From a virus (Duplodnaviria > Heunggongvirae > Uroviricota > Caudoviricetes): a stretch of 39,545 bases of DNA. This document shows, piece after piece, positions 2,940 through 36,933 of the stretch. A model generated the notes under the pieces. That model made no database searches, was not told where the DNA came from, and was given only the letters and a program-made list of their open reading frames with translations. The position numbers and the translations under genes are program-made. How positions within the stretch are numbered: the stretch's first letter is position 1; each line of letters begins with the position of its first letter. The stretch lies in IMG/VR virus record IMGVR_UViG_2913152634_000006; one strand, given 5' to 3'.

Positions 2940-3182
2940 ATGGGCAAAGAATATAAAACTCTCATTAACAAAGCACTTGAGCGTTTTTATTTTCGCTTAA
3001 GTGCATCAGGCGCTCATGCTGAACGTGCGGCCCGTGACTCATTGACCAGAGCAATCCGAAGTCTGTATGACGTGGCTTTTTACGCTGATGATCTGGATGC
3101 ACTTAACGAACTTTCCGAGCTGATCTGTGCCGCAGAATGCGGGGAACATATTGAACCGTATAAGCTGGGGAATATCGCATGA
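2940..3182 (+). CDS. Hypothetical early protein
   Basis: 80-81-aa ORF (GTG 2937 or ATG 2940), follows the previous gene by 9-12 nt. Confidence 0.5.
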   Translation: MGKEYKTLINKALERFYFRLSASGAHAERAARDSLTRAIRSLYDVAFYADDLDALNELSELICAAECGEHIEPYKLGNIA

Positions 3183-8974: not shown

Positions 8975-8991
8975 ATTTAAGGATGATATAG

Positions 8992-14177: not shown

Positions 14178-14331
14178 TGCTCCCCCTGAGTAATTACAGG
14201 AAGATTACCCGCGCGCGAAACTGTTCTCCTTAACCCCCTGTTCTGGCCGTTTTCTTACAACAAAAGCCCTTTGTATCAGCCTGTTACGCTTTGCCATCAT
14301 GACTGAAGAACCAGTCAGAGGGGCAAAAACT

Positions 14332-19006: not shown

Positions 19007-19157
19007 CACTCCCACATGGGGAAATCTCGGTATATGGGGCGACCGCCTTCTGGATGCACTGGAAACCTGTAACGCGGATAAACGGGCCATTGAATTACTG
19101 GAACAGCGCAGGCTGCAACGACTGAACAACGAGGACAACAACCATGCTGAAAACTGA
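18867..19157 (+). CDS. Rz1-like o-spanin lipoprotein (LysC-like), overlapping the i-spanin in another frame
   Basis: Signal peptide with lipobox LLTGC (MNAPTLCLTLVLLTGCAG) and a proline-rich mature region; embedded/overlapping arrangement typical of Rz/Rz1. Confidence 0.55.
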   Translation: MNAPTLCLTLVLLTGCAGTQNAPRPAPSVRLIPQTLTIPVTPPPFPDTPTWGNLGIWGDRLLDALETCNADKRAIELLEQRRLQRLNNEDNNHAEN

Positions 19158-19611
19158 TTCCCTGCGTGAAGCCATGACCTGTTCATGCCGATGGTGTCAG
19201 GCCAACCCGGAAAAATTCACCATTTTCGTGGAGAGCGGCAACATTGAAACGACCGGAGAAACGCCCTCGTTTGTTTACCGCTATCAGATGGTGATGTTTG
19301 TCATGGATTACGCCGGGGAGCTGGACGACCTCACGCTGCCGCTGCTGGCGTGGTTATCCGAAAATCAGCCACAGTTGTTGCTCAACCCTGAGCGTAATCA
19401 GGACATCAAATTCTCCGCCGTTATCAATGACGATGACAGCGCCGATCTCCTGTTTACGCTCCCCCTGCGGGAACGCGTTCGCATCACGCGCAGCAGTCAG
19501 GGCACACCGCAGGCAGAACACCTGCCGGAGCCAAAACCCCGCCTGCCCTCTTCCGAAGGCGACTGGTCGCATGTATTCCAGGATGTGACGTGGTGTGAAA
19601 GCGATGGATAA
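19144..19611 (+). CDS. R: Tail completion protein R
   Basis: 155 aa (same length as P2 R), position after the lysis cassette. Confidence 0.8.
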   Translation: MLKTDSLREAMTCSCRWCQANPEKFTIFVESGNIETTGETPSFVYRYQMVMFVMDYAGELDDLTLPLLAWLSENQPQLLLNPERNQDIKFSAVINDDDSADLLFTLPLRERVRITRSSQGTPQAEHLPEPKPRLPSSEGDWSHVFQDVTWCESDG

Positions 19612-20239
19612 GGCATTCACCCGCGTGGATGAAACCTTTGAGGCCATCCGCGACAGCCTGAATCAGCAGGCCATCAATAACATCGCCAGAAAGCTGGCAC
19701 AGGATTTACGCCGCGCCCAGCAGGCGCGCATCCGGTCACAGAAAGCGCCGGACGGGACCGCATGGACACCGCGCAGACGCCGCGTAACCCGGATACAGGA
19801 ACGCATTCGCTTTATCTGGAATAACGAAGCACGCACGCTGAAAAACTGGCATCACGACACGGGGAAATACGGGCGAACCATTACCGGGTGGGATGAGGAT
19901 AAAAACAATATCCGCACGTTTTACCGGGATGACATCGACCGTTTTCTGGAAATACGCACCCGGCGCATCAACCAGGACAGCACAAAGCGCGTCCCCATGT
20001 TCGTAAAACTGCGCACCGCCCGCTACCTGAAAGCCCGTGCAGATGCTTCCGGTGTGACGGTGGGTTACAGCGGCGTGGCCGCACGTATTGCCCGCGTTCA
20101 TCAGTTCGGTGAGCGCGATCAGGTTGCGCCGGGCATTTTCACCGATTACCCGGTACGTGAGCTGTTGGGCATCAGTCAGGCAGATGAACGCCTGATTTAT
20201 AACACGGTGCTGGGCCGGATTGCGGAGGCTGTACGGTGA
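19604..20239 (+). CDS. S: Tail completion / virion morphogenesis protein S
   Basis: ATG 19604 overlaps the R stop; position between R and V. Confidence 0.7.
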   Translation: MDKAFTRVDETFEAIRDSLNQQAINNIARKLAQDLRRAQQARIRSQKAPDGTAWTPRRRRVTRIQERIRFIWNNEARTLKNWHHDTGKYGRTITGWDEDKNNIRTFYRDDIDRFLEIRTRRINQDSTKRVPMFVKLRTARYLKARADASGVTVGYSGVAARIARVHQFGERDQVAPGIFTDYPVRELLGISQADERLIYNTVLGRIAEAVR

Positions 20240-20817
20240 GCGCAGAACTCATGCGACTGCTGAGCAATATCATCCGCACCGGGATCATCTCTGAAGTTGA
20301 TGAGAAGTCCTGGCGCGTGCGCGTTCGCAGCGGCGAACTGGAAACAGGCTGGTTGCGCTGGAACACCACGCGCGCGGGGGCCTTCAATGTGTGGCTGCCG
20401 CCATCACCAGGCGAACAGGTGGTAATTGCCTGCATTGGCGGCAACCCGGAAACCGCCATGATAATTGGCAGCCTGTGGAGTGATGCCAATCCGGCCCCCG
20501 GCAAAAGCCTGAAAGAAATCGTGATCAGCGCGCCGGACGGCGCGGTGTTCCGCTACGACGCGGACGCAGGCGCACTGAGCGCCAGCGGCATGAAAACGGC
20601 CACTTTACAGGCATCCGTCAGCGTGAAACTGGACACGCCCGTCGTGGAATGCACAAACCTTCTGAGAACGGCGACGCTTGACGTCACAAAAGGAGGAAAG
20701 ATGAGCGGCAATATCACGCACAGCGGCGGCAACTTCACCTCAAACGGCATTACCGTGCATACGCATAAACACGGTGGCGTGAAAGGTGGCAGCGATTCGA
20801 CAGGAGGCCCGCAGTGA
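20236..20817 (+). CDS. V: Baseplate spike/assembly protein V
   Basis: 193 aa, GTG start overlapping the S stop; glycine-rich C-terminus; synteny S-V-W-J-I. Confidence 0.8.
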   Translation: MSAELMRLLSNIIRTGIISEVDEKSWRVRVRSGELETGWLRWNTTRAGAFNVWLPPSPGEQVVIACIGGNPETAMIIGSLWSDANPAPGKSLKEIVISAPDGAVFRYDADAGALSASGMKTATLQASVSVKLDTPVVECTNLLRTATLDVTKGGKMSGNITHSGGNFTSNGITVHTHKHGGVKGGSDSTGGPQ

Positions 20818-22589: not shown

Positions 22590-24749
22590 ATGAGTACCAC
22601 AACACGAAAATTTAAAACCGTTATCACCGATACAGGTGCAAAAAAATTAGCTCAGGCAGCCGCGCCAGATGGTAAGCCTGTCCGCCTGACTCATATGGCC
22701 GTGGGCGACGGTGGCGGCACGTTGCCCACACCAGACAGTAAGCAGACCCGTCTGGTGCATGAGGTGTGGCGACACACTGTTAATCGCGTCATCCTGGACG
22801 CAACACATCAGAACCGCATTATTGCGGAGCTGGTTATACCTCCTGAAACGGGCGGATTCTGGATCCGGGAAATTGGTGTATTTGATGAGCACGGCGATTT
22901 AATCGCGGTGGGCAATACTGCCGAAAGTTACAAGCCAACCGTTGCCGAGGGGTCCGGACGTGCACAAACATTTCGCACCATTCTGACCGTATCCAGCACT
23001 GCCAGCGTGGCGCTTACCGTGGATAACACCATGGTGATGGCCACAGTGGATTACGTGGATGACAAACTGAAAGAGCATGAACAGTCACGACGTCACCCGG
23101 ATGCCTCGCTGACCGCAAAAGGCTTTGTTCAACTCAGTAGCGCCACTAACAGCGATTCTGAAACGCTGGCCGCAACGCCGAAAGCGGTTAAGGCCGCGTA
23201 TGACCTGGCTAACGGAAAATATACCGCTCAGGACGCCACGACGGCACGAAAAGGGATAGTCCAGCTCAGCAGTGCAACCAACAGCACGTCTGAAACGCTG
23301 GCAGCGACACCAAAAGCGGTTAAGGCGGTAATGGATGAAACGAACAAGAAAGCCCCATTAAACAGCCCGGCACTGACCGGAACGCCAACAACACCAACTG
23401 CACAACAGGGAACGAATAATACCCAAATCGCAAGCACGGCTTTCGTTATGACCGCGATTGCCGCACTTGTAGACTCTTCACCTGACGCACTGAACACGCT
23501 GAACGAGCTGGCGGCGGCGCTGGGCAACGACCCGAATTTTGCGACCACCATGACTAACGCGCTTGCGGGTAAGCAACCGAAAGATGCCACCCTGACGGCG
23601 CTGGCCGGGCTTGCTACTGCGGCAGACAGGTTTCCGTATTTTACGGGGAATGATGTTGCCAGTCTGGCAACCCTAACAGAAGTCGGGCGGGATATTCTTG
23701 CGAAATCGACCGTTGCCGCTGTTATCGAATACCTCGGTTTACAAGAAACGGTAAATCAGGCTTCTGGCGCATTACAGAAAAACCAGAACGGCGCAGATAT
23801 TCCCGATAAAAAACTATTCCTGCGTAATATCGGCACAACAAATTCAACAACAATGTCTTTTAGTGGTGGTGCTGGATGGTTCAAACTGGCAACTGTAACA
23901 ATGCCACAAGCCAGTTCCGTGGTTTACATAAACCTGATTGGTGGCGCAGGGTATAACGTTGGCTCCCCGCAGCAAGCAGGCATCTCTGAGCTGGTTCTGC
24001 GTGCAGGAAATGGAAATCCAAAAGGTATTACTGGTGCATTATGGCGACGGACCTCGGTTGGATTTACTAATTTTGCATGGGTGAATACATCCGGTGATAC
24101 CTATGACATTTATGTAGAAATAGGTAATTACGCCACAGGTGTTAATATCCAGTGGGATTATACAAAGGATGCAACTGTACAAATTCATACATCACCAACT
24201 TATACAGCGAATAAACCAACAGGCCTGACAGATGGAACTGTATATGTAATTTACAGTTCGCACATTAAACCGACTGCTGCTGAGGTTGGGGCGTTGTCAT
24301 TATCTGGCGGTCAATTGAATGGTGCATTGGGTATCGGAACATCCAGTGCTCTTGGCGGTAACTCGATTGTTTTGGGTGATAATGACACGGGATTTAAACA
24401 AAATGGCGACGGGTATCTGGATGTTTATGCTAATAACGTCCATGTTATGCGCTTTGTCTCCGGCGGCATTCAAAGTAATAAAACCATAAATATTACAGGG
24501 CGTGTTAACCCCTCGGATTACGGTAACTTTGATTCCCGCTATGTGAAAGATGTTCGACTTGGTTCACAGCAATATTATGGCGTGAACAACTGGCAAACAT
24601 GGAATTTCCAGTGCCCGTCAGGTCATGTATTGACTGGTATTAATGTTCAGGATACAGGGTCCAATTCTGCCGATAATATAGCGGGCGTTTATTACAGACC
24701 CGTTCAAAAGTATATAAATGGCACCTGGTATAATGTAGCGAGCGTTTAA
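22590..24749 (+). CDS. H: Tail fibre protein H (constant N-terminal part plus currently expressed variable C-terminal part)
   Basis: 719 aa; tail-fibre repeat motifs ([19 protein letters not shown] twice); C-terminal [11 protein letters not shown] shared with the inverted Hv' cassette; gix-like site inside the gene at codons about 378-386. Confidence 0.85.
23127..23330 (+). repeat. Tandem duplication of a tail-fibre collar repeat (two roughly 72-bp copies, period about 132 bp) within H
   Basis: Copy 1 at 23127-23198 and copy 2 at 23259-23330, encoding [22 protein letters not shown]. Confidence 0.5.
23722..23747. promoter_or_regulatory. gix/cix-like recombination site, left (inside H)
   Basis: ttatcgaatacctcggtttacaagaa; 23/26 identical to the reverse complement of the right site and close to the recalled Mu gix sequence; central dinucleotide TC at 23734-23735. 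Confidence 0.6.
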
Positions 24750-24750
24750 T

Positions 24751-25275
24751 ATGATGCACTTAAAGAACATAAAAGCGGGTAACGCTAAAACACTGGAACA
24801 GTATGAGTTAACAAAGAAACACGGAGTTATCTGGCTTTACTCTGAGGACGGAAAAAACTGGTATGAGGAAGTGAAAAACTTTCAGCCAGACACCATAAAG
24901 ATTGTTTACGATGAAAATAATATTATTGTCGCCATCACCAAAGATGCCTCCACGCTTAACCCTGAAGGTTTTAGCGTAGTTGAGGTTCCCGATATAACAA
25001 CCAATCGTCGGGCCGATGATTCCGGTAAGTGGATGTTTAAGGACGGAGCTGTGGTTAAACGGATTTATACAGCTGACGAACAACAACAGGCCGAATCACA
25101 AAAGGCCGCGTTACTTTCCGAAGCAGAAAGCGTTATTCAGCCACTGGAGCGCGCTGTCAGGCTGAATATGGCGACGGATGAGGAACGCGCACGACTGGAA
25201 TCATGGGAACGCTACAGTGTTCTGGTCAGCCGTGTGGATACGGCAAATCCTGAATGGCCACAAAAGCCTGAATAA
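24751..25275 (+). CDS. G: Tail fibre assembly chaperone G
   Basis: 174 aa, starts 2 nt after the H stop; paralogous to the inverted G' (shared MMHLKNI...GKNWYEE...[22 protein letters not shown]). Confidence 0.8.
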
Positions 25276-25282
25276 AAATTAA

Positions 25283-25298
25283 GGCCCGATAGCGGGCC
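25283..25298. terminator. Short GC hairpin (GGCCCG-atag-CGGGCC) between convergent G and G'
   Basis: Perfect 6-bp stem read directly; bidirectional position between convergent genes; weak flanking U-tracts. Confidence 0.4.
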
Positions 25299-25303
25299 TT
25301 GTC

Positions 25304-25837
25304 TCATTCTGGTTGTTCGGGAAACGTTACTGGCAGGCTGGAGGTGTCTGTAGATTCGACCTTCTGCGCATAGAGCATCCACTCGGTTAATTTTTGTTTA
25401 TTCTCGTCGGAAATGATGCCCAGCCGTAGCTGTGAGTCCCATAGCTGGGTTTTATCCCTGACAAGTTGCACCAGGCTTTGCTTTTCATTCTCTGCCTGCT
25501 GCCTCTGTTCCTCTTCGGTATAAGTTCGCTTTATCACTACGCCATCTTTGAACATCCATTTACCCGAAATATCAGCCCGGCGATTTGCTGTAATATCAGG
25601 AACCTCAACGACGCTTGCGCCTTCCGGATTAATTGCTGAAACATCCTTTTCAATACAAATAATAACGCCGTTGTAGTCATAGACCATTTTCAACGTATCA
25701 GTCTGGAAATTCTTTTGTTCCTCATACCAGTTTTTTCCATCCTCTGTATAAAGCCATTTGATGTTAAATTGTTTCGTTAGCTGGTATTGCTCTTTTGTTT
25801 TAGGGTTGCCAGCTGTAATATTTTTTAAGTGCATCAT
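25304..25837 (-). CDS. Alternative tail fibre assembly chaperone G'
   Basis: 177 aa, paralogue of G on the opposite strand inside the invertible segment. Confidence 0.8.
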   Translation of the reverse strand: MMHLKNITAGNPKTKEQYQLTKQFNIKWLYTEDGKNWYEEQKNFQTDTLKMVYDYNGVIICIEKDVSAINPEGASVVEVPDITANRRADISGKWMFKDGVVIKRTYTEEEQRQQAENEKQSLVQLVRDKTQLWDSQLRLGIISDENKQKLTEWMLYAQKVESTDTSSLPVTFPEQPE

Positions 25838-25839
25838 AA

Positions 25840-26796
25840 TTAAATACTCCCCGCGTTATACCACGTTCCATTAATGCAATACTGAATTGGCCTTGCCTGA
25901 GTTGTATCAATTAATTCATCACGGTTTCCGTTAACTGAACCAGTAACGACATAACCTGACCTGTCAGACCAGCCGGGACCATTCCATGTCTGAACAGATG
26001 ACAGACCGCCCAGGCGAATACCTGTAATAAACCTTGAGTTACATTCTGCCTGCGTATATGCACCAACATCCCCCGCAGAGGGTTTGCGGGTTGTGGTGTA
26101 AAACTCTGACCAGTTAGCTTCAAAGCCATAACCATCACGCGCTGAACGATAAAAGATGCCGCCGTTCTTATAATTCACGCGGAACTGTACAGCAGGGCAA
26201 CTCCCCGCATTCATATTGAAGTGGAGGATTAATGTCGATGCACCACTGATATCTGCATCATAAACACCGCTATTCCAGTTCCAGCCAACAGCTTTATCAT
26301 TTGCGACCCTGCTTCCTGTTTGCCCTAAAGCAAATGCAGGCTGCTGGTTTTTCGTGTTGTAGTCTCGTCGCCAGCCAGGAGAATAAGCATCACCATGATT
26401 AATATAAGTGAATTGAGCGTTAGTAATTCCGCCACCGCTGGACGTGCTCGGCGTGGTAACGCGTATAGTCATTGCGCCGCGGGTGCCAATAACTTCCACC
26501 ACAGCACCTGCAAGACAAATATTTCCGCAACCTGTATCTGTAATTACCTTATTATTTGCATAAGCCCATGAGCCTTTGCACATCCAGTAAGGATGGTTAA
26601 ATGCCCCCTGACTCTCCAGCCACGAAATGAATTGTGCGGTTGTCCAGGCCTGACTATCGCCACCAATATTCAGCCATGAGCTATATGCGCGGCAGGCCCC
26701 AATATTTTTGGTGAAGGTATCTTTTCCCGGAATATCTGCGCCGTTCTGGTTTTTCTGTAATGCGCCAGAAGCCTGATTTACCGTTTCCTGTAAACC
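25840..26796 (-). CDS. Alternative tail-fibre C-terminal cassette Hv' (promoterless and start-less; expressed only after inversion fuses it to H)
   Basis: Open frame from the crossover in the right gix site to the stop at 25840; the frame is closed by TAA immediately outside the site; C-terminus IQYCINGTWYNAGSI parallels the H C-terminus; the ORF-track Met start (26583) is internal. Confidence 0.65.
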   Translation of the reverse strand, partial: GLQETVNQASGALQKNQNGADIPGKDTFTKNIGACRAYSSWLNIGGDSQAWTTAQFISWLESQGAFNHPYWMCKGSWAYANNKVITDTGCGNICLAGAVVEVIGTRGAMTIRVTTPSTSSGGGITNAQFTYINHGDAYSPGWRRDYNTKNQQPAFALGQTGSRVANDKAVGWNWNSGVYDADISGASTLILHFNMNAGSCPAVQFRVNYKNGGIFYRSARDGYGFEANWSEFYTTTRKPSAGDVGAYTQAECNSRFITGIRLGGLSSVQTWNGPGWSDRSGYVVTGSVNGNRDELIDTTQARPIQYCINGTWYNAGSI

Positions 26797-26810
26797 GAGG
26801 TTTTAGATAA
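26785..26810. promoter_or_regulatory. gix/cix-like recombination site, right (inverted relative to the left site)
   Basis: ttcctgtaaaccgaggttttagataa; its reverse complement ttatctaaaacctcggtttacaggaa is close to the recalled gix sequence. Confidence 0.6.
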
Positions 26811-26864
26811 TGGCCGTTTCCGGCCTGCATGGCATGATTTGCGCTTTTGGACGGGAGATTCAGC

Positions 26865-27452
26865 GTGCTGATTGGCTATGTAAGGGTATCAACAAATGAC
26901 CAGAATACAGACCTGCAACGAAACGCTCTTGTTTGTGCAGGATGTGAACAAATATTTGAAGATAAATTAAGCGGGACAAAGACAGACCGACCGGGATTAA
27001 GACGCGCTTTAAAGCGCCTTCAAAAAGGTGACACGCTGGTTGTCTGGAAACTGGATCGCCTCGGGCGAAGCATGAAACATCTGATTTCTCTCGTCGGGGA
27101 ACTACGGGAGCGAGGAATTAATTTTCGCAGTCTGACCGACAGCATAGATACATCTTCTCCAATGGGGCGTTTTTTCTTCCACGTGATGGGTGCCCTGGCT
27201 GAAATGGAACGTGAATTAATTGTTGAACGTACACTGGCCGGACTGGCGGCAGCACGCGCACGGGGGCGCACAGGCGGACGTCGACCGAAGCTGACAAAAG
27301 AACAGCATGAGCAAATAGCAAGGCTGATCAAAAACGGGCACGACAGAAAACAACTGGCAATAATTTACGGCATTGGTATATCGACGATTTATCGTTACCA
27401 CCCCGCAGGAGAATCAATCGGAACAATAGAGAAGAGTCAGGAAACAAAATAA
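26865..27452 (+). CDS. Serine-recombinase DNA invertase (Gin/Hin/Cin/Pin family)
   Basis: From GTG 26865 (GGGAG SD 7 nt upstream): MLIGYVRVSTNDQNTDLQRNALVCAGCEQIFEDKLSG... is near-identical over the first ~140 aa to recalled Mu Gin, including the catalytic Ser in YVRVSTNDQ; C-terminal HTH. ORF-track ATG 26847 is the alternative start. Confidence 0.9.
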   Translation: MLIGYVRVSTNDQNTDLQRNALVCAGCEQIFEDKLSGTKTDRPGLRRALKRLQKGDTLVVWKLDRLGRSMKHLISLVGELRERGINFRSLTDSIDTSSPMGRFFFHVMGALAEMERELIVERTLAGLAAARARGRTGGRRPKLTKEQHEQIARLIKNGHDRKQLAIIYGIGISTIYRYHPAGESIGTIEKSQETK

Positions 27453-27480
27453 CCGCTAATCTGACCATTAGCGGTTTTTG
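27451..27480 (+). terminator. Rho-independent terminator after the invertase gene
   Basis: aaccgctaat-ctgacc-attagcggtt followed by tttt, immediately after the invertase stop. Confidence 0.55.
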
Positions 27481-27487
27481 TGTTAAA

Positions 27488-27982
27488 TCAGAACAGCCCT
27501 TTAACTGAACTGGCCGCGCTGTTAAGAGATGATGTCACCTTATCTTTGAAGCCGGACAGCATATCGCTGAATGATGAGGATTGCAGGCGCTCCCGCAAAT
27601 CCTCATCACAGCGTTCAAGGGTCAGTGAAAATTCTATCTTTTTCGCCTTACCGTAGCGATCAAACTCGGAACGGGTCGTATTCGTTTCAGTCAGCACATA
27701 CATGCCGTAAATCTGCCCGACACCATCAATCAGAGGCCAGGGGCGTCCTGTATATGCCTGCGTGGTCAGCAACGAAAGCGACACTTCGCCACCTGTAATT
27801 TCAGGATAAAGCACGCCGGAAAGCACAATGCGATCATCACCTGCACCTATATACTGCCAGCTTGCTGAACGGTTAACGCGTTCATTTTTCACATGCCGCC
27901 AGCTTTTGTTTTGCTGTAACTGCTGATGCGGCAGTGTGCGCAGCTCAAAAACAAACATGCCGTAGATCATCATCATGACCAT
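27488..27982 (-). CDS. U: Tail protein U
   Basis: 164 aa, immediately downstream of the tape measure on the same strand; SWRH...GAGDD..I.LSG...RPWPL.DG...EFDRYG pattern as recalled for P2 U. Confidence 0.8.
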   Translation of the reverse strand: MVMMMIYGMFVFELRTLPHQQLQQNKSWRHVKNERVNRSASWQYIGAGDDRIVLSGVLYPEITGGEVSLSLLTTQAYTGRPWPLIDGVGQIYGMYVLTETNTTRSEFDRYGKAKKIEFSLTLERCDEDLRERLQSSSFSDMLSGFKDKVTSSLNSAASSVKGLF

Positions 27983-27988
27983 GACTCC

Positions 27989-30805
27989 TCAATCTTTATC
28001 GTAAAAACTGCCACGTCCGGCACGGGCGCGCCGTTCCATCTCTGCCCTGACCATTTCACCGACCAGTTTCGCCAGTTCGCGGGGATTCTGCGTAACAACG
28101 TTATGCAGATGAACATGAATTTCACCGCCAAATCTGGAGACAGCAGGCTCCCGATTACGGGAAGCTGCAGGAACTGATGCCACTGGCGATCGTATGGCCT
28201 CCGCCACCGGGCGGGAGCTGACCGCAACAACAGGGACCAGCGCCGGAGGCAGCGGAGCCGGGACTACGGGTGTGATATTAATTGCGGGGGCAGGCTTACT
28301 GACCTGCGCAATCTTCCGCTCCTGCCACTCCCCACGAACAGCAAGTGCGCGGGGCAGGTTCTTAAAGACAATATCGCCAGGGCCAATGCGTTTTTTCGTC
28401 TCATCAACCAGCTTACCTGTGTTATCAGCAATTTTGCTGAGTCTGCGTAGCGTCCCGGTATTGCTGTCTGTGAGCGGTTTGTTGTCTTTGGGTTTATCAC
28501 CTCCGGTGCCATTGCCATTTTCCACAGGCTTCGGCGGATTGATTTTCGCAAGGTCCCCCTGAAGCAAGGCAACCTTGTCCTGAAGAATGGCCGCACGCTG
28601 TGCGTCTTCGATTTTCTTGCGCGCCTTTTCCGCTTCATCCGGAAGGACGCCAAGTTTTTCAAGTATCCACGCCAGCGTATCCAGTAGCATTTTTGCAGGT
28701 GTCAGAACAAGCTGTAGCGCACCGCCAAGAACGTTACCGAATATCTCGCCAGCACTGGTACATTTATCCAGCGTTTCCTTGCTGGACTCCATCGGTGACA
28801 GCAGCGATTTAAACCAGTTAAACACCTGGCTGATCCCGCTTCCGATTGCGTCAAAAACAGGACCAAACCGTTCAAAGGTTTCGCGCAACGGGGTCAGCCT
28901 TTCCATAATCCCGCTGAACACCCCGGCAAAAAATGCCCTGATGGGATCCCAGTATTTCCAGATAAGAACGGCAGCTCCGGCAAGCGCAGCCACGATAAGA
29001 CCAACCGGACTGATCAGCGCCCCGATAGCGCCTCCCAGTAAAGAAACGGAACCCGTCACCATTCCCCATAGTGCTGGCAGGACCCTGACAGCATTCATTG
29101 ATCCGGTCAGGAGAGAAAAACCAAGACGCAGTTTTGCCAGCGGACCAGCAAGCACACCAATAGCCAGCGACAACGAGCCAACCGTTGCAGTCATTGCCAG
29201 CAACGCACCGCCTGCTATCAGTAGCTGGCGCGTCAGTGCCGGATGGGCCTGCGCCAGCGCCGTCACCCTTGATACCACCCGCGCGAGCCACTGCGTGACA
29301 GAACGCAGCGGACCGTCAATCAGATCTGCAATGCGGATGCGCAACCCTTCCCATGCACTGCCGAGTGATTTCAGATCGCCGTCAAGGTTGTTGGCCATAA
29401 CCTTTGCTGTGCGTTCAGCCTCACCGCGCGCGCCTTCAAGTTCTTTTCTCAGTTTGGGTAAGGAACCGTCACCCGCTGCATCAACGAGCGCCATAAACGA
29501 TGTGAAAGCCTCTTCTCCGGCAATGTCCTTAAAGAACGATACCCGGTCAACTTCCCCGTATTTGCGGGTGGCTTTATAAAGGTCGGCCAGCACATCCTCC
29601 ATCGGGCGCATTTTGCCCCCGGCATCCGAGACGGACACGCCCAGCTCTTTCAGAGCTTCTGCCGCCGCCTTTGGCGGTGATGCCAGACGAGCCAGGCTGG
29701 CACGCATTGCCGTCCCGGCATCACTCCCTCTGATGCCCATATTCGCCAGCACGCCAGCCATCGCTGCGGCCTGCTCCAGCGATATTCCCAGCTTACCCGC
29801 CACCGGACCTGCATATTTCATGGTTTCGCCCAGTGCGCGAAGGTCAGTGTTGGTACGGGTAAACGCTGCGGTGAGTGTGTCACCAACCCGGTCCATCTGG
29901 TCAGCAGAAAGGCCGAACTGCGTCAGGATATTTGAGCCAATATCTGCCGTCTCGCCGAGATCCATACCGCCAGCCGTTGCCATGCTCAGCACGCCGGGAA
30001 GCGCAGCCTGAATGGCCTGCGGAGTGAAGCCAGCCATTGCAAGAAATGCCTGTCCACTGGCGGCATCGCCTGCGGTGAACTGCGTTTCAGAGCCAAGTTT
30101 TAACGCCTGCTCACGCAGCGCCTTAAACTGCGGGCTGTTCTGGTCGATTCGCGTCAGTGCCTGAACGCGGGACATCTCTTTGCCGAACCCGATCGCAGGC
30201 TGCAAAAAACGCCCGGCAGCATAGCCGCCCGCCGCTGCCGCACCAATTGCCAGCGCACCACCTGTTTTCAGTTTTCCCGCTGTTTCCTGCGCGCGCGAAT
30301 ACCGCTCACGCGCCCGCGTTACACGCGCAAGCGCCTGCCGTTCGCGTTCAAGCTGGTTGTTGTACTGTTCGGTGCGTCTGATGGCCTGCTGGATGGTGTT
30401 ATCGCTGCCTGTCAGGGAAATGCCGTGGCGTTTCAGCTCTCCGCCAAGCTCCCGCATTTTCTGAATTTCCCGTGTGCGCGATTCATTCAGGCGTTCAAGC
30501 CGGGTGCTTAACTGCTGCATCAGCTTTTGTTGTTTTTCGCTGAGCACTGTACCCGTGCGTTGTAACTGATTAAGGGCGTTAAGCTGGCGTCGTGCTTTCA
30601 CGATGCCAGCATCCGCTTTACTGACAGCGTCACGGGCGCGCTCAAATGAACGCGCCTGACGCTCGAGATTTTTGATCGCCCCCTGCGTTCGCTGGATGGA
30701 GTCACCAAACTGCCCCATCAGGCGGCGGGCGTTTTCGGCAGGCCGGGTCAGCCTGTCAACGGCGCTGAAAGCGACCCGGATATCAAGAGTCTTCATTATC
30801 TGCAT
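27989..30805 (-). CDS. T: Tail tape measure protein T
   Basis: 938 aa; coiled-coil N-terminal part, Gly/Ala-rich hydrophobic central region; follows E/E'. Confidence 0.85.
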   Translation of the reverse strand: MQIMKTLDIRVAFSAVDRLTRPAENARRLMGQFGDSIQRTQGAIKNLERQARSFERARDAVSKADAGIVKARRQLNALNQLQRTGTVLSEKQQKLMQQLSTRLERLNESRTREIQKMRELGGELKRHGISLTGSDNTIQQAIRRTEQYNNQLERERQALARVTRARERYSRAQETAGKLKTGGALAIGAAAAGGYAAGRFLQPAIGFGKEMSRVQALTRIDQNSPQFKALREQALKLGSETQFTAGDAASGQAFLAMAGFTPQAIQAALPGVLSMATAGGMDLGETADIGSNILTQFGLSADQMDRVGDTLTAAFTRTNTDLRALGETMKYAGPVAGKLGISLEQAAAMAGVLANMGIRGSDAGTAMRASLARLASPPKAAAEALKELGVSVSDAGGKMRPMEDVLADLYKATRKYGEVDRVSFFKDIAGEEAFTSFMALVDAAGDGSLPKLRKELEGARGEAERTAKVMANNLDGDLKSLGSAWEGLRIRIADLIDGPLRSVTQWLARVVSRVTALAQAHPALTRQLLIAGGALLAMTATVGSLSLAIGVLAGPLAKLRLGFSLLTGSMNAVRVLPALWGMVTGSVSLLGGAIGALISPVGLIVAALAGAAVLIWKYWDPIRAFFAGVFSGIMERLTPLRETFERFGPVFDAIGSGISQVFNWFKSLLSPMESSKETLDKCTSAGEIFGNVLGGALQLVLTPAKMLLDTLAWILEKLGVLPDEAEKARKKIEDAQRAAILQDKVALLQGDLAKINPPKPVENGNGTGGDKPKDNKPLTDSNTGTLRRLSKIADNTGKLVDETKKRIGPGDIVFKNLPRALAVRGEWQERKIAQVSKPAPAINITPVVPAPLPPALVPVVAVSSRPVAEAIRSPVASVPAASRNREPAVSRFGGEIHVHLHNVVTQNPRELAKLVGEMVRAEMERRARAGRGSFYDKD

Positions 30806-31321
30806 TCCCGCTGCGAAGTGCCGCCCGCTCGCGCCAGCTAACCACTTCGCCGGGCGTCATCATGAAGATTTCGGCGGGCGACCAGTTAAAAATGGCGGCA
30901 ATATCCGCCACCAGATCTTCGATGTGCTCAAAGCACACCAGGGTGATTACGCTGCCGTCTCCTGCACGCTCTTCGCGCCAGAGTCTGGCTCGCTCATAAA
31001 ATTTACAGCCACTGCGCACAACTGAATAAAATCGCGTGACGACATTTTTTTAATCATCACTTCATCCAGTCGTGGCGAGGTCACGCGAGGCAACAGCGTA
31101 AACATGGTATCCGCTTTCAGATTCAGCACATCAGACAGCGACAGACCACGCAGGGATCCAGCCTGCTCAATAGCCCCGGTGATCTCCACATACGTGATTT
31201 TTTCGCCACCACGCTCAATTGGTCGGGTCAGTTTTACGCCACGTTCGACAGCCATATCCTCACCTGCCGTCACATCATCCGCCACGGTGTTATTCCGGGT
31301 TTCAGTATTGATGTCTTTCAT
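30783..31321 (-). CDS. Tail assembly chaperone E+E' (predicted -1 programmed frameshift product)
   Basis: The -1 frame (ORF-track 30783..31019) stays open across the E stop; its only upstream in-frame stop lies just 5' of an A7 run (minus strand; T7 at 31045-31051 on plus), so entry must be at or after the run; arrangement equals P2 E/E'. Confidence 0.55.
30947..31321 (-). CDS. E: Tail assembly chaperone E
   Basis: 124 aa, ATG 31321 with AAGGAG 8 nt upstream; position between tail tube FII and tape measure T. Confidence 0.75.
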   Translation of the reverse strand: MKDINTETRNNTVADDVTAGEDMAVERGVKLTRPIERGGEKITYVEITGAIEQAGSLRGLSLSDVLNLKADTMFTLLPRVTSPRLDEVMIKKMSSRDFIQLCAVAVNFMSEPDSGAKSVQETAA

Positions 31322-31376
31322 CAGTTGTCTCCTTTTCAGTCAGAGGCGACGCACTGCGCCGCCTGCATATTACTTA

Positions 31377-31889
31377 TCAGCCAAGCCCAAGCGCGGAACG
31401 GATACGGTCAGGCACAATGTCCTTGCCGTCCTTCCGGTAGATGTGGTTCAACAGGTCGATTTCCCACAGCGGGCGATCGTTAACGCTCAGCTTGTAGTAG
31501 GTGTTTTTGACAGCGTAAGTGTGTGATGTGGCTTCGCCCTGTTTGGCTTCCCCCATATCAATTTCCGTCACACGCCCGCGCATCTCGATTTCATACAGAT
31601 CGCTTTCTGCATCGGTGTAGTATTCACCCGCAAAACGCAGCAGCGTGCCGTCAATCGTGCCGCCATATTTAAGGAACAGCGCACGAACAGCTCCCCCCAT
31701 GACAAAACTCGCATCAAGCGCGGAGTCGTCCAGACCGAGATCAATACTTACCGCCCCCATCATGCCACCACCACGATAGCTGTCGGTTTTGCGCGTCAGT
31801 TTGGGCGGCGTGACGGATGTCACTTTACCCACTTCGTTTTCACCATCCACAAACAACGTAAAAAAGCGAAGATGTTTTGGTACAGCCAT
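31377..31889 (-). CDS. FII: Tail tube protein FII
   Basis: 170 aa (P2 FII is about 172 aa), directly downstream of the sheath gene with a 1-nt overlap. Confidence 0.85.
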   Translation of the reverse strand: MAVPKHLRFFTLFVDGENEVGKVTSVTPPKLTRKTDSYRGGGMMGAVSIDLGLDDSALDASFVMGGAVRALFLKYGGTIDGTLLRFAGEYYTDAESDLYEIEMRGRVTEIDMGEAKQGEATSHTYAVKNTYYKLSVNDRPLWEIDLLNHIYRKDGKDIVPDRIRSALGLG

Positions 31890-33073
31890 CAGGCACCTCC
31901 CAGCACCGCAAATGCGGGACCAAAGAATTCATCAGTAAACGTCTGGTAAAGCTCCATGTCTTCCAGCGGGGGAACAGGCGTATATTTGTAGCGAATACGC
32001 ACACGTCCCTGACGTAAATTCGTGGTGCCGTTATCCACCACGTCATACCAGCACTCCGCACCAATCAGTTTCCCGGCAGTAACCAGCGAATCCAGTTTTG
32101 CCCTGATGGCGCTGATAACATCCTTCACGTTCGCAGGTGTCAGTGGACTGTCGATGGTTTCAAACTGCGCTTCCGCAATTGAATCAGCCAGCACCTGTGC
32201 GGTTCGGGTATACACCTCAAAGATGTAGGCGTTCGTTTCCGGTGTGCGGTTGCCCCAGAAGCGGAACCCGTTGCGACGAATAATGGTCGTGATTTCTTTG
32301 TTGTTGAGGCTGTTGGCATCGCTGTCTTCGGCCTGCAACGACCAGAACACATGCCTGGACATTCCCAGCACATTTTTAACCGGAACGTTGGACAGCGATT
32401 TGTGCCAGCCCTGCTCATGGTCAATGTACGCACGAAGGCCGCACGCATAAGCAGGCGCGGGGAACGTTTCGTTTTTGCCACTTTTCGGGTTGTAGGCGAT
32501 GAAGTCCGGCCATAAGAGCATCACCTCACGTTCGTTGAATTTCTGGCGGTAGGTAATCGCCTCAGCCATCGTGTTACAGCCGTGACATGAGGCATACACA
32601 AACGCGCGCAGTTTACCTGCAATCACGCACAGGGATTTTGTTACAGCCTCCGTGTCCAGCTCCGGCGCGGCCAGAATACGCGGACGGTATCCGATGCTTT
32701 CATCCTGCTCTGCAACAAGCAGCGCATACATCCCCGTATAGCTGCCGTCATCCTCAGAACCACCGATAACCAGTTGATCCTGCGTCTTTCCGTCTTCTTC
32801 TTTGTGTTCAGCCACGCGAACGACGATCACCTTTGTGCTCACCTGGTCTGCGATGGCCTTAAGCGCACGATAAAGCGTCCCCGTTGTCCCGCATTTTCCC
32901 AGCACGTCATTGACGCGGGTCAGCAGTGTGGGCTTATTCAGCGGGAACAGCTTCGCGTCCGCATCATCCGCCGTTGCCACGATACCGATAACGCTGGAAT
33001 CAACATCGTTAATCGCTGTTACCAGGTCGGTATTTTCCGTAACACGGGCACCATGAAAACGAGTTTCACTCAT
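31889..33073 (-). CDS. FI: Contractile tail sheath protein FI
   Basis: 394 aa (P2 FI about 396 aa); good SD (AAGGGG) upstream; first gene of the FI-FII-E-T-U block. Confidence 0.9.
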   Translation of the reverse strand: MSETRFHGARVTENTDLVTAINDVDSSVIGIVATADDADAKLFPLNKPTLLTRVNDVLGKCGTTGTLYRALKAIADQVSTKVIVVRVAEHKEEDGKTQDQLVIGGSEDDGSYTGMYALLVAEQDESIGYRPRILAAPELDTEAVTKSLCVIAGKLRAFVYASCHGCNTMAEAITYRQKFNEREVMLLWPDFIAYNPKSGKNETFPAPAYACGLRAYIDHEQGWHKSLSNVPVKNVLGMSRHVFWSLQAEDSDANSLNNKEITTIIRRNGFRFWGNRTPETNAYIFEVYTRTAQVLADSIAEAQFETIDSPLTPANVKDVISAIRAKLDSLVTAGKLIGAECWYDVVDNGTTNLRQGRVRIRYKYTPVPPLEDMELYQTFTDEFFGPAFAVLGGA

Positions 33074-33230
33074 AGCTTCAGCCCCTTGTATCCGTTAAAT
33101 GATTCGGCAACAATCATCACCCACCACGCGCGTAATCTCACCCCTGCGCCGTTCTTCCGACCCAGCGACAACAAAAAGCAGTAACCCCCTCCGCACGCAC
33201 ATGCGACCATGCCGCACAGGGAGGGAACAG

Positions 33231-34340
33231 ATGACCGACACCACCATGCAATTGCTCAGTCAGAGCACAGACCCCGTGAAAATGCCGGATTTTGATATTC
33301 TCGCGGAGGGTAAAACGCTGTCAGGCGTGGCAGAGCGCCTGATGAGCCTGTCACTGACCGACAACCGGGGATTTGAGGCGGACCAGCTCACCATCACGCT
33401 GGATGATGCGGATGGTCAGTTGCAGCTACCGCCACGGGGCGCGCGCCTGACGGTTCTCATTGGCTGGAAAGGAGAACCGCTGACAGAAAAAGGCACTTAC
33501 ATTGTTGATGAAATCGCTCACGAAGGACCGCCGGACAGGCTGACTGTTTCAGCCAGAAGCGCAGATTTTCGGGATGAATTTAACGTTAAACGTGAGGTGT
33601 CCTGGCATGATGTGACCGTTGAGCGTGTGGTATCCGCCATCGCTCATCGGTATGGTCTGAAACCGCAAATCAGCGAAATGCTGATGGATATCGAAATCGA
33701 CCACGCCGACCAGACCGAAGAAAGCGACATGTCCTTCCTTACGCGCATGGCGGAAATGCTGGGCGCAATCACCACGGTAAAAAGCGGTAATCTGTTATTC
33801 ATCATGCCCGGCGGTGGCGTGAACGCACAGGGCCAGCCGTTGCCATCGTTTGCCATCACACGCAGCAGCGGCGATCGCCATCAGTTCCGCATTGCTGACC
33901 GCGAGGCGTATACAGGGGTACGCGCTTACTGGCTTGATCTTAATTACGGGAAAAAGAAAAAAGTCAGCGTGAAACGCCGCAAACCGCCAAAACCCAAAAA
34001 GGAGAAAAGCAGCAGCCGTGAAGGTGATTATATGGAAGGCGCAGAAGGCAATGTGTTTGTGTTACGCAAGACTTATCAGAACGAGCAGGCAGCAAGACGC
34101 GCAGCGGCGGCAAAGTGGCAGCAGCTACAACGCGGAGCCGCATCATTTTCCATCACGCTGGCGCGTGGACGTGCAGAACTCTACCCCGAAATGCATGGCA
34201 CGGTAACAGGATTTAAAAGCGAGATTGATAATCAGGACTGGATTATTGCGAAAGCCGAGCACACCATTGATAACAGTGGCTTTACCACGCAGCTTGAGCT
34301 TGAAGCAAAAATTCCGGAATGGATCGTAGAAACAGAATGA
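33231..34340 (+). CDS. D: Tail protein D (late control gene D family)
   Basis: Start at ATG 33231 after GGGAGGG; 369 aa; size and composition as P2 D; here divergent from FI rather than downstream of U. Confidence 0.8.
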   Translation: MTDTTMQLLSQSTDPVKMPDFDILAEGKTLSGVAERLMSLSLTDNRGFEADQLTITLDDADGQLQLPPRGARLTVLIGWKGEPLTEKGTYIVDEIAHEGPPDRLTVSARSADFRDEFNVKREVSWHDVTVERVVSAIAHRYGLKPQISEMLMDIEIDHADQTEESDMSFLTRMAEMLGAITTVKSGNLLFIMPGGGVNAQGQPLPSFAITRSSGDRHQFRIADREAYTGVRAYWLDLNYGKKKKVSVKRRKPPKPKKEKSSSREGDYMEGAEGNVFVLRKTYQNEQAARRAAAAKWQQLQRGAASFSITLARGRAELYPEMHGTVTGFKSEIDNQDWIIAKAEHTIDNSGFTTQLELEAKIPEWIVETE

Positions 34341-34462
34341 GTAAATTAGATGCATTAGCTCAGTCATGAGTTTACTGATTACGTACGGCACAGAAGCAGA
34401 CCTGATAGTTTGCTCTGTGCCAGAAACGGACATTGCCGACATCATAATCGACACAAATTACA

Positions 34463-35248
34463 TCAATCACCTATGTGATTACGTTCTATATATCTTACAA
34501 TCTTCTCTAAAGATTCAAATCCCCACCTCTGCATAGCATGTGGGAATTCTGTATATTCATAATCTTCTATGGTGAGATCCCATGTACTTTTCTTGAATTC
34601 ACACTGATATAATCGCACAGTCTTGTTTAAAACCAACCCTTCTAACACACTGCTTTTCTTAATGATTTTGTCAATGTCTTTATTGTTAATCCCAATGTAG
34701 ATAGCTGTTACCGAACTTAAATCAGTTATCTTGTCAATTAAAATATTTTCTTGCTTTTGTAATAGCCCCACTCGCTTTATTATTCTAACTTCTTCTTCAT
34801 ATTTCCAATGCAATGATTTAGTAAGCAATAATTTACTAATTACATCAGCGCTATAAATGTTTTCTTGACTGATTTTTAGTTTACTTTTTATTCGACTCTC
34901 TAAATAATTAATGTCACCTTTCTGTGCCGTAATTAGGCATTTTTCTTCATCATCAAACCCTGCCCTTTCTGTGTCAATTGCTACAACAAACCCCTGATGT
35001 TTATCAGCATAATGTGACCACATCAGTACATTGAGAGGATTTTTAGAAAGGCATAAGCAGGCAACATTTTGATTGATCTCCCCCCTCATAGCTAATGGTT
35101 CAAGCGATTCACCATCTAATGAAAGTTCATAGCCATAGCTTTCAAAAGGATCATTAAACTCACTATACGGAGTGAATTTTATAGAGATGTAACCATCTTT
35201 AAAAAATCGTTCCAATGATGTCTTATCTATATATTTATACAGAATCAT
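34463..35248 (-). CDS. AT-rich accessory (moron) gene, DUF2971-like protein of unknown function
   Basis: Start placed at ATG giving MILYKYID...; LYKY N-terminus, FNDPFE and MWSHYADKHQGFVV motifs resemble DUF2971 as I recall it; opposite strand to flanking D and ogr; strongly AT-rich relative to neighbours. Confidence 0.55.
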   Translation of the reverse strand: MILYKYIDKTSLERFFKDGYISIKFTPYSEFNDPFESYGYELSLDGESLEPLAMRGEINQNVACLCLSKNPLNVLMWSHYADKHQGFVVAIDTERAGFDDEEKCLITAQKGDINYLESRIKSKLKISQENIYSADVISKLLLTKSLHWKYEEEVRIIKRVGLLQKQENILIDKITDLSSVTAIYIGINNKDIDKIIKKSSVLEGLVLNKTVRLYQCEFKKSTWDLTIEDYEYTEFPHAMQRWGFESLEKIVRYIERNHIGD

Positions 35249-35443
35249 AATATATTCAGAATTAATTATAGGTGTTATCAGTATACAGTACTTCAACAAG
35301 TAGATGTAAAGATCCCATTTAAACGTTCCTCCTCAATACGCGGATTAAACAAATTAAAGCATCTTACTCAAAATGGACCATCAGTTGGATTTAGAGCCAA
35401 CACAACCTAGAATAGCGGCAGCACCACGTTAAGGGAGGTCGCT

Positions 35444-35704
35444 ATGTTCCGTTGTCCGCTTTGTGGCGCATCTGCCCGTATCCGCACCAGTCGTCCGGAA
35501 AATGATTCAAACACCGTGCGACAAAAGTATTACCAGTGCAACAACCTGGAATGCGGCGTATGCTTCTCAACACTGGAAGCTTTCCATAAATTCACATCGA
35601 AACACGCCTCCGGCGTTCACTCTTCAGAAGGTATCCCGTGGCATGAGCTGCCAGCTTCACACAGGGGAAACAATCAGATGAGTTTGCCTTTACCTCAGAA
35701 TTAA
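35444..35704 (+). CDS. ogr: Late gene transcriptional activator Ogr (zinc finger)
   Basis: MFRCPLCGASARIRTSR...YYQCNNLEC matches the C-x2-C...C-x4-C Ogr/Delta pattern and recalled P2 Ogr N-terminus (MFHCPLC...ARTSR...HQCQNVNC); strong SD AAGGGAGG. Confidence 0.8.
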   Translation: MFRCPLCGASARIRTSRPENDSNTVRQKYYQCNNLECGVCFSTLEAFHKFTSKHASGVHSSEGIPWHELPASHRGNNQMSLPLPQN

Positions 35705-35844: not shown

Positions 35845-36933
35845 TTACCTTCGCAAGTAGAAGGTTAGCGCCTCTCCTCTCAGGAGACAAGCGTTTGTAT
35901 GGGTCCACCACATATTGCAATTTTTATTCTCTTTTAAAATATATTCCACGGGCGTCATTAGTGCGAGCGCCTTGTGGGGTCTTTTGCTGTTATACAGCAC
36001 CAGATATTCCGCCAGCTTCTGGTTAAATAGCGCCAGATCTTCAAAGAGTAAAATCTCATTAAATTCAATAAACTGCTCTCTTAACGTCCGGTTAAAACGT
36101 TCACAGATAGCGTTCATTTTTGGCGTGTAGGGATAGGTCCAGAGGTGTTTGATAGCGGCTTCCTGCAGCGTTTTGTCGAAGTTTCCCAGGAACTCTTTTC
36201 CGTTATCTGTGATTATCTGGCTGATACCGACCGGGAACAACCGGGCTGCGCGGCTGAAGAAGTGATTGACGATATCACTGTTGAGTGACGGCACAGCCAG
36301 TGCCAGCGCGTAATTGCTGCATTCGTCGATCATGGTGATGACATAGCGACGCAGTTCGCCCATTCTGAGCTCAATGGCGTCCATCCCAATGAGCTCACCT
36401 GTCTTTACCGGGCGGTAGTGCTTTGGCCTGCGGGGTTTGGCAGACCGCTTTTTGACAAGCAGTGCCTTCCCCCGCGATCCCAGACGCACAGGTATCATCC
36501 GCATTTTATCATGTGCGGCAGCGATCATTCTGCCGATGGTGGAAACACTCGGACAGGCCAGATAGCGCTGTTCGCACCAGGGCTTCAGGCGAACAAAAAT
36601 CTGCTCTTTACCGAGGTTCGGCAGCTCTGTCCTGAGGCGTCGAATCTCTTTCAGCACATCGGGATGCCAGTGTTTTTTTCGTCGCACCAGAGGTGCCTTA
36701 CTGTGCGGGATTAGCCCCTCAGGTCCTTCCTTGTTCAGTAACTGACGCCACCAGTAAAGCGTGCGGCAGGACACGCCAAAGGCTTCAGAAGCTGCAGAAA
36801 TACCGTGTTTATCCCAGAAGTGCAGAGCCTTCATTCTCATTGTTGCTATATCAGCCATCACTGAAAGCCTCAACGCATAATCGGCCGTTTGGTAGTACTT
36901 AGGATAGCCAACCATCAGATGCTGCATTTGCAT
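35845..36933 (-). CDS. IS-element DDE transposase (rve integrase-core type, single ORF)
   Basis: 362 aa; N-terminal HTH-like segment (MKALHFWDKHGIS...CRTLYWWRQ), DDE-type core with ITDNGKEF; the real start is probably an internal Met (MADIATMRMK...); IS family and ends not determined. Confidence 0.7.
   Translation of the reverse strand: MQMQHLMVGYPKYYQTADYALRLSVMADIATMRMKALHFWDKHGISAASEAFGVSCRTLYWWRQLLNKEGPEGLIPHSKAPLVRRKKHWHPDVLKEIRRLRTELPNLGKEQIFVRLKPWCEQRYLACPSVSTIGRMIAAAHDKMRMIPVRLGSRGKALLVKKRSAKPRRPKHYRPVKTGELIGMDAIELRMGELRRYVITMIDECSNYALALAVPSLNSDIVNHFFSRAARLFPVGISQIITDNGKEFLGNFDKTLQEAAIKHLWTYPYTPKMNAICERFNRTLREQFIEFNEILLFEDLALFNQKLAEYLVLYNSKRPHKALALMTPVEYILKENKNCNMWWTHTNACLLRGEALTFYLRR

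Follow-up and report, generated by a model that had tools for sequence, protein, structure and literature searches.

The 39,545-nt viral sequence analysed here (the window) is, to judge from its gene content and nucleotide alignments, a P2-family prophage of the P88-like (Xuanwuvirus) type, and its tail genes FI to U run divergently from gene D in the standard, anciently fixed and already known order of the P88 group and its relatives. Taken as a whole, the window is best explained, with a probability of roughly 0.85, as a P88-like prophage with an old, fixed inversion of the FI-U block and a predicted bidirectional, Ogr-dependent late promoter between FI and D.

Membership in the P2-like phages (Peduoviridae) is indicated by Pfam matches to homologues of FI, FII, E/E', T, U, D and Ogr, all of which are present, and in BLASTP comparisons the tail proteins are only 33–49% identical to those of P2 (E-values of 1e-14 to 1e-121). 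The ORF map shows the divergent P-Q and O-N-M-L head genes, with the P2 gene order otherwise kept; the window O protein aligns with P2 gpO, and J, I, H and G lie on the plus strand upstream of the tail block. This block, comprising U, T, E/E', FII and FI on the minus strand (27488-33073), stands between a Gin-like invertase gene and D, both on the plus strand, and is separated from the invertase by 35 bp (27453-27487) and from D by 157 bp (33074-33230). The original prediction had described the block as inverted with respect to P2, which the ORFs, Pfam matches and P2 record confirm, and the 157-bp gap across which it placed FI and D back to back was found as described.

The serine DNA invertase (26865-27452, plus strand) has Pfam Resolvase and HTH_7 domains and is collinear with Mu gin. 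It is followed on the minus strand by homologues of the tail protein gpU (27488-27982; Phage_P2_GpU, E = 5.5e-39; 46% identity to P2 U) and of the tape measure protein gpT (27989-30805; PhageMin_Tail; 33% identity to P2 T). An ORF at 30783-31019 contains the coding part of the frameshift extension E' (Phage_P2_GpE, E = 2.1e-12, residues 37-72), and its equivalent is annotated in P88 as a small tail protein. The gpE tail assembly chaperone homologue (30947-31321; 35% identity to P2 E) has a weak Phage_TAC_7 match, below cut-off, and the remainder of the block encodes homologues of the gpFII tail tube (31377-31889; Phage_tube, E = 2.1e-45; 42% identity to P2 FII) and the gpFI tail sheath (31889-33073; Pfam sheath domains; 45% identity to P2 FI). 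The plus-strand gpD homologue (baseplate hub/late control D, 33231-34340; Phage_GPD; 49% identity to P2 D) has a start codon and Shine-Dalgarno sequence that are kept in relatives, and the P88 annotation uses the same start. The gene for an Ogr/Delta-family zinc-finger late activator (35444-35704, plus strand; Ogr_Delta, E = 5.1e-14) is separated from D by a 1.1-kb insertion here, and lies ~45 bp after D in most relatives.

In phage P88 (Xuanwuvirus P88, NC_026014), the genes from H to D have the same order and strands as in the window, including the Mu-like invertible segment and the invertase. P88 aligns to window positions 24700-34400 as one collinear piece (99% covered, 95.3% identity) with identical annotated strands, and PhiSM is collinear at 94% coverage. 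P88 and its close relatives PhiSM, P884B11, 500465-2, Chuche and PhiR44_2 show 95–97% nucleotide identity to the window in the tail region and ~96% over 74–80% of the rest (for positions 1-24700, 74% covered at 96.2% in P88 and 80% covered at 95.8% in PhiSM). The ICTV genus criterion is a nucleotide similarity of at least ~70% over the genome to the type phage; the overall similarity here is ~0.75–0.8, an approximate value as the window is not exactly the prophage, and the tail region agrees with the P88 annotation in gene order and strands. Unlike P88, the window carries a DUF2971/PDC-S31 gene separating D from ogr and, at 8129-10689, a methyltransferase/ATPase pair resembling PD-Lambda-5, whereas P88 has a hok/gef-like gene after D.

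According to RefSeq annotations, the divergent layout occurs in at least four ICTV genera: Xuanwuvirus, Novemvirus, Reginaelenavirus and Senquatrovirus. Novemvirus phiT5282H, Reginaelenavirus 3LV2017 and Senquatrovirus SEN4 all have the tail-fibre/assembly genes on the plus strand, U-T-E-FII-FI on the minus strand and D on the plus strand; they differ from the window in their hosts (Enterobacter, Klebsiella and Salmonella), in a D protein of 63–79% identity and in having no invertase beside U. Among 80 listed loci, chosen by similarity so that rarer exceptions to the divergent/canonical dichotomy could exist, the divergent layout is found in all 60 whose D reaches at least 61% identity to that of the window, which come from about 30 genera of enterobacteria, and all 20 with a P2-like D are co-directional. 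The Klebsiella record CP052639.1 was left out as an example of the clade, because the record is scrambled and its sheath gene split. Literature searches on P2-like phages, Xuanwuvirus and phage P88 yielded no explicit statement describing the inversion.

Among 5426 complete E. coli genomes, the native order (at least 80% of 26811-34340 covered) is present in 1348, while an in-silico re-flipped chimera is matched in none, its best cover of 76% corresponding to the block alone. As far as sequence comparison goes, these counts dispose of the concern, raised originally, that the 5.7-kb block is mis-oriented in the assembly of this genome. That idea was prompted only by the difference from the P2 order, and nothing was found in its favour; the E. 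coli genomes were assembled independently, the same order is seen in P88, which was sequenced from virions, and in 60 loci from other genera, and the junctions hold no repeats that could mislead an assembler, leaving an artefact with a negligible probability. The accompanying worry over prophage viability is likewise contradicted, as the layout is shared by P88, which is mitomycin-inducible and plaque-forming (PMC5285337), and by PhiSM, a functional, plaque-forming temperate phage (PMC6456863). Many related functional phages thus share exactly this arrangement, an outcome that the original prediction had itself named as speaking against its proposal of a rearrangement. What stands of that proposal is an inversion relative to P2; what falls is its being a peculiarity of this prophage, given that the layout is invariant across the clade.

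The polarity of the change is given by the canonical order in P2, Fels-2, Pseudomonas phage Dobby and Burkholderia phage Mana: because all of these are canonical, the inversion is, on this comparison, derived and old. In the P2 record (Peduovirus P2, NC_001895), the F operon FI-FII-E-E'-T-U-D has the same seven genes in the same internal order as the window; FI-FII-E-T-U-D-ogr are co-directional, the seven tail genes are served by one promoter, pF, and D overlaps U. Unlike in P2, the window has FI-U inverted and D transcribed separately. The FI-FII-E/E'-T-U block was probably flipped long ago from the ancestral P2 order, and the inverted state is fixed in this lineage and across a much wider enterobacterial clade.

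The block and D appear to have been inherited together, because across 56 loci the identity of D correlates with that of FI (Spearman 0.91) and of U (0.86), and FI, U and D have diverged from P2 to a similar extent (45%, 46% and 49% identity). A different origin would be module replacement, in which the clade ancestor took up an FI-U cassette from elsewhere that by chance entered in reverse orientation. P2-like phages are indeed mosaic, and the tail-fibre segment of this prophage was clearly imported from Mu/P1-like phages. Such a replacement is nevertheless improbable in view of the tight co-variation just described and of the nearly equal distance from P2 of FI, FII, U and D (42–49% identity); furthermore, the block is exactly the canonical operon minus D, with its internal order canonical.

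The imported tail-fibre segment is a Mu/P1-type invertible segment (23722-26810) that lies outside the inverted tail block and is 92–94% identical in nucleotide sequence to the Mu/D108 G segment. The window has only two gix-like sites, at 23722-23747 (minus strand) and 26785-26810 (plus strand), both bounding this segment. No gix-like sequence within 3 mismatches was found at 27453-27487 or 33074-33230, and no inverted repeat was found joining the two block junctions, so the earlier observation that neither breakpoint carries such an element holds within the window. As the junction sequences read, this lack of inverted repeats and gix-like sites rules out a recent repeat- or invertase-mediated flip of the 5.7-kb block. 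The adjoining Gin-like invertase might still be suspected of a programmed or accidental inversion, with the block as a second invertible segment or as the product of a recent event at pseudo-gix sites, since the invertase gene next to the left junction looks active and serine invertases occasionally act at secondary sites. Crossover sites of the expected kind are missing at the junctions, however, and the second orientation that an invertible segment should show was seen in 0 of 5426 genomes, with 60 of 60 clade loci in one orientation. All 57 clade loci have the inverted block, but no more than 8 have an invertase beside U, and Fels-2 (Felsduovirus) has an invertase at the same position with canonical order; an inversion driven by this enzyme is therefore extremely improbable. 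In Fels-2, as in the window, an invertible tail-fibre cassette is followed by the invertase and then by the tail genes, and because the Fels-2 order remains the canonical co-directional FI-FII-E-T-U-D-ogr, the position of the invertase is independent of block inversion.

Two candidates for the divergent layout were rejected: Fels-2, on account of its canonical order, and xenorhabdicin (xnp1), considered as a known tailocin with this layout, in which a variable tail-fibre region lies beside the sheath gene, so that its order differs (PMC13280938).

At the left junction, a terminator scan gave matches on both strands to a predicted bidirectional intrinsic terminator hairpin at 27451-27476, with a 10-bp stem, a U-tract on each strand, and folding energies of -15.7 and -16.1 kcal/mol (z-scores of -3.4 and -3.9). 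The converging invertase and FI-U transcripts may both end at this common terminator. Late tail transcription would thus fall into three units: one rightward through the baseplate and tail-fibre genes (and the invertase, where there is one), one leftward from FI to U, and one rightward that begins in the 157-bp FI-D spacer and covers D, with ogr following closely in most relatives.

Cut off from the F operon, D must have its own promoter, a deduction of the original prediction that the layout supports; its further suggestion that the FI-D spacer carries divergent late promoters is in keeping with a candidate footprint of one dyad and two conserved hexamers. The Ogr-type late promoter consensus is given as TGT-N12-ACA where it is cited in PMC3931495. 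P2 likewise has an Ogr-family activator and late promoters of this type. None of the window's late intergenic regions contains the exact motif. The putative Ogr-type dyad of the FI-D spacer, TCT-N12-ACA at 33153-33170 (centre 33161.5), differs from the consensus by one mismatch, and because its left half-site is TCT, it becomes visible only after alignment of relatives. Of the relatives' 58 distinct spacers, 53 have one T[G/C]T-N12-ACA dyad and the remaining 5 deviate further; the half-sites (T.T/ACA) are conserved among spacers and the N12 is variable. This dyad would be the common activator site of both promoters. Its extended form, TCT-N12-ACAACAAAAG, also occurs with the same geometry in the P/O spacer of the window (14242-14259).

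On the FI side, the predicted -10 hexamer is GATGAT on the minus strand (33113-33118), implying a start near 33106; across the 58 distinct spacers, conservation is at least 90% at positions 2, 5 and 6 of the hexamer, and in 53 of 53 spacers its centre is 46 nt away from that of the dyad. On the D side, a predicted extended -10 element (TGc GACCAT, 33202-33210, plus strand) implies a start near 33217; conservation reaches at least 90% at the G of the TG and at positions 2 and 6 of the hexamer, and at least 75% at position 5, and in 47 of 53 spacers the hexamer centre is again 46 nt from that of the dyad. Also conserved, next to the D-side -10, is a CGCGCGCG box that these promoter elements do not explain. 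A generic sigma-70 scan gave no more matches than shuffled sequence and called neither the FI nor the D promoter, its sole match near the spacer being a weak one on the minus strand inside D (33324-33297); such silence is expected of activator-dependent promoters without a -35 element. We infer that the FI-D spacer is a bidirectional Ogr-dependent late promoter, with both starts and the Ogr dependence predicted from sequence only. No paper describing an FI-D bidirectional promoter was found.

By analogy, the single FI-D activator site appears to match the shared-site geometry of P2 pP/pO. In the P2 record, a single feature at 3057-3087 is labelled "activator binding site; pO, pP promoters", and the starts lie at 3016 and 3127. 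These starts, which like their Ogr dependence have been mapped in P2, are 111 bp apart, as are the predicted FI and D starts of the window (33106 and 33217), and the symmetric site at 33153-33170 would lie 55.5 bp from each of the latter. P2 has this architecture only at the P/O pair, while the window would have a second copy at FI/D.

D may instead stand outside Ogr control, with an extended -10 promoter that needs no activator or with expression in an earlier D-ogr unit, the dyad then serving only FI. The D-side hexamer, GACCAT, is weak, and with its conserved TG it resembles an extended -10 element and could work without an activator; because ogr follows D by ~45 bp in most relatives, the two could also share a transcript that must start before Ogr exists. 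The constant 46-nt spacing on the D side, the same as on the FI side in 47 of 53 spacers, counts against this, because an irrelevant dyad would impose no such constraint. The geometry also equals that of P2 pP/pO, whose two promoters share one annotated site, and by annotation, transcription of the late F operon in P2 extends into ogr as well. Independence of D from Ogr is on balance unlikely, if less so than module replacement.

As to how an Ogr-dependent bidirectional promoter could have arisen at FI-D, it is rather probable that the ancestral pF Ogr site was moved beside D and co-opted as a second late promoter of the pP/pO kind. Since a symmetric activator site of this kind can work in either direction, an inversion that brought the pF site beside D would have kept D under late control with little beyond a -10 element. 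If this is true, one activator site coordinates expression of the sheath and tube with that of the hub protein D, and in most relatives with that of ogr itself, and the strict +/-46-nt geometry over four or more phage genera is an undescribed regulatory signature of the clade.

These results caution that P2 is the wrong template for some P2-like prophages. Roughly one in four complete E. coli genomes has the divergent tail layout, for which reason annotation and intactness pipelines built around the P2 order should not flag it as rearranged or defective. The single dyad placed midway between two -10 elements throughout the clade makes a directly testable regulatory prediction. The symmetry of the activator site, which already acts in both directions at pP/pO, is predicted to have let late control in the P2 family tolerate inversion of an operon.

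The window is a P2-family prophage in which genes J, I, H and G occupy the plus strand as far as 25275 in the ORF map, with a Mu/P1-type invertible tail-fibre segment (gix-like sites at 23722-23747 and 26785-26810) and a plus-strand Gin-like invertase gene (26865-27452; Pfam Resolvase and HTH_7). Pfam matches identified the minus-strand genes U (27488-27982), T (27989-30805), E' (within the ORF 30783-31019), E (30947-31321), FII (31377-31889) and FI (31889-33073), the plus-strand gene D (33231-34340) and a gene encoding an Ogr_Delta protein (35444-35704). In the P2 record, FI, FII, E, E', T, U, D and ogr are co-directional under a single promoter, pF, and comparison with this record bears out the original prediction that the FI-U block is inverted relative to P2, with spacers of 35 bp (27453-27487, invertase-U) and 157 bp (33074-33230, FI-D) at its ends. 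The suggestion that this is peculiar to one genome did not hold. The region 24700-34400 aligns to phage P88 (Xuanwuvirus P88) as one collinear match (99% covered, 95.3% identity), with the same gene content and strands in the P88 RefSeq annotation, and is also collinear with Citrobacter phage PhiSM and with P884B11, 500465-2, PhiR44_2 and Chuche. The remainder of the window is ~96% identical to PhiSM and P88 over 74-80%, which places the prophage in P88's genus. The same order is found in complete E. coli genomes, 1348 of 5426 of which are collinear with 26811-34340 over at least 80%. A P2-like order "restored" in silico by placing the reverse complement of 27471-33230 between the invertase and D was covered in one place to a maximum of 76%, corresponding to the block alone, among the same 5426 genomes; the block orientation is fixed and non-polymorphic. 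P88 is mitomycin-inducible, forms plaques and is genetically manipulable (PMC5285337), and PhiSM is temperate, spontaneously released and lysogenising (PMC6456863); thus the layout is compatible with a full life cycle.

D proteins of several genera were aligned with P2 D, 80 genomic loci were taken with 10-kb flanks, and FI, FII, T, U, D and ogr were placed in each by tblastn. This revealed a clean dichotomy: in all 60 loci with D at least 61% identical to that of the window, U, T, FII and FI are on the opposite strand and D-ogr diverges from FI, whereas all 20 loci with D nearer to that of P2 have the canonical co-directional order. Hosts of the divergent loci include Salmonella, Edwardsiella, Serratia, Erwinia, Pantoea, Enterobacter, Klebsiella, Kosakonia, Pectobacterium, Brenneria, Xenorhabdus, Photorhabdus, Providencia, Morganella, Yersinia and Hafnia, among others. 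Three further ICTV genera are divergent in their own RefSeq annotation (Novemvirus phiT5282H, Senquatrovirus SEN4 and Reginaelenavirus 3LV2017), bringing to at least four the number of genera with public phage genomes already annotated in this layout. The inversion was correctly observed, but its original interpretation holds only in part, since the layout is typical of the lineage and present in these annotated genomes. The canonical order is seen in P2, Fels-2, Pseudomonas phage Dobby (Citexvirus) and Burkholderia phage Mana (Aptresvirus), so this order is ancestral, and the inversion is derived, old and clade-defining. Import of a foreign cassette would be an alternative to inversion in situ. 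Identities co-vary across loci (Spearman 0.91 for D vs FI, 0.86 for D vs U), and D, FI and U are at similar distances from their P2 counterparts, which favours inversion in situ. One 32-kb linear Klebsiella record (CP052639.1, "plasmid unnamed") carries the sheath gene as two incomplete parts flanking D and has the appearance of a prophage sequence that was permuted or misassembled.

As originally stated, neither block junction contains a gix-like site or inverted repeat; both were searched. A hairpin at the left spacer (27451-27476; ~ -16 kcal/mol, z -3.4 and -3.9) scored as an intrinsic terminator on both strands in a terminator scan. The plus-strand tail-fibre module is the left neighbour of U in every locus of the divergent clade. 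The invertase is beside U in only 8/57 of these loci, and Fels-2 has an invertase at the same position yet retains canonical gene order; the block inversion and the invertase are therefore unrelated. The invertible cassette and 5' part of the invertase gene (23722-27244) are 92-94% identical in nucleotide sequence to the Mu/D108 G segment and gin, with the Mu homology tapering off within the invertase gene, and likewise match the P1/P7 C segment, reflecting recent exchange of this module between P2-like and Mu/P1-like phages.

Two low-GC cargo regions were found. The first (8129-10689, ~32% GC), at the P2 old/tin position, encodes a D12-class methyltransferase matching PADLOC PD-Lambda-5_B (E 1.6e-122) and a 565-aa AAA/ABC-type ATPase with weaker PtuA/AriA/GajA-like matches, and is likely an anti-phage defence island. 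The second, a minus-strand DUF2971 gene (34463-35299; PADLOC candidate PDC-S31, E 3.7e-27), separates D from ogr, a gap of only ~45 bp in most relatives, so expression of ogr here must come from a promoter of its own or from transcription reading through the insert. A minus-strand IS-type transposase gene (35845-36933) with rve integrase core and HTH domains immediately follows ogr, at or close to the end of the prophage.

Alignment of the clade FI-D spacers (58 distinct sequences) showed that they are mostly variable, with few conserved elements. Among these is one T[G/C]T-N12-ACA dyad, represented in the window by TCT-N12-ACA at 33153-33170 (centre 33161.5), a candidate site for the late activator Ogr; the P2 late-promoter consensus is TGT-N12-ACA, as cited in PMC3931495. 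Flanking it are a -10-like hexamer on the FI side (GATGAT, complement of 33113-33118) and a TG-n-hexamer on the D side (TGc GACCAT, 33202-33210). The dyad-to-hexamer distance, centre to centre, is 46 nt in 53/53 spacers on the FI side. On the D side it is also 46 nt in 47/53 spacers, with 47 nt in four others and 49 nt in the remaining two. Columns conserved at 90% or above are the dyad half-sites, FI-side hexamer positions 2/5/6, D-side positions 2 and 6, and the G of TG. The predicted transcription starts would lie at ~33106 and ~33217, a spacing of 111 bp that places the dyad centre 55.5 bp from either one. In the P2 record, a single "activator binding site; pO, pP promoters" is annotated at 3057-3087, and the mapped starts at 3016 on the minus strand and 3127 on the plus strand are likewise separated by 111 bp, with their midpoint at 3071.5.

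The FI-D dyad motif recurs in its extended form, TCT-N12-ACAACAAAAG, in the P/O spacer of the window (14242-14259), with TAATCT 46 nt to its left and TGc-CATCAT 47 nt to its right. This geometry fits if scaffold gene O starts at ATG 14332, probably the correct start rather than the first ATG at 14299; ATG 14332 has a GAGGGG Shine-Dalgarno, P2 gpO aligns there at its N-terminus, and the shorter gene would leave space for an O promoter symmetric to the P promoter about the dyad. A CGCGCGCG-like box just upstream of the D-side -10 (33191-33199), conserved in relatives' FI-D spacers, also occurs in the P/O spacer (14210-14217) and in degenerate form in that of P2. Two further exact TNT-N12-ACAACAA matches (~0.3 expected by chance per whole window) are inside gene O (14751-14772, its first 7 bases common with the P/O dyad) and inside the DUF2971 gene (34968-34989). 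Neither an Ogr-type dyad nor an intergenic gap was seen at 19000-20300, the position of the P2 pV promoter; O to G is apparently one unbroken plus-strand gene run, so a separate pV may be absent from this lineage.

The conserved dyad and -10 geometry, the match to P2 pP/pO, the P/O-spacer motif and the Ogr_Delta gene together suggest that the FI-D spacer is another bidirectional late promoter of the pP/pO type, in which both directions share a single predicted Ogr site. Some activator-independent expression could arise from the D-side extended -10. The expectation that this spacer carries divergent late promoters is thereby supported at the level of conserved geometry, with the starts and Ogr dependence being predictions. 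As a literature search found no paper commenting on the block inversion or the FI/D promoter architecture, this regulatory reading is not a discovery but a modest and testable addition.
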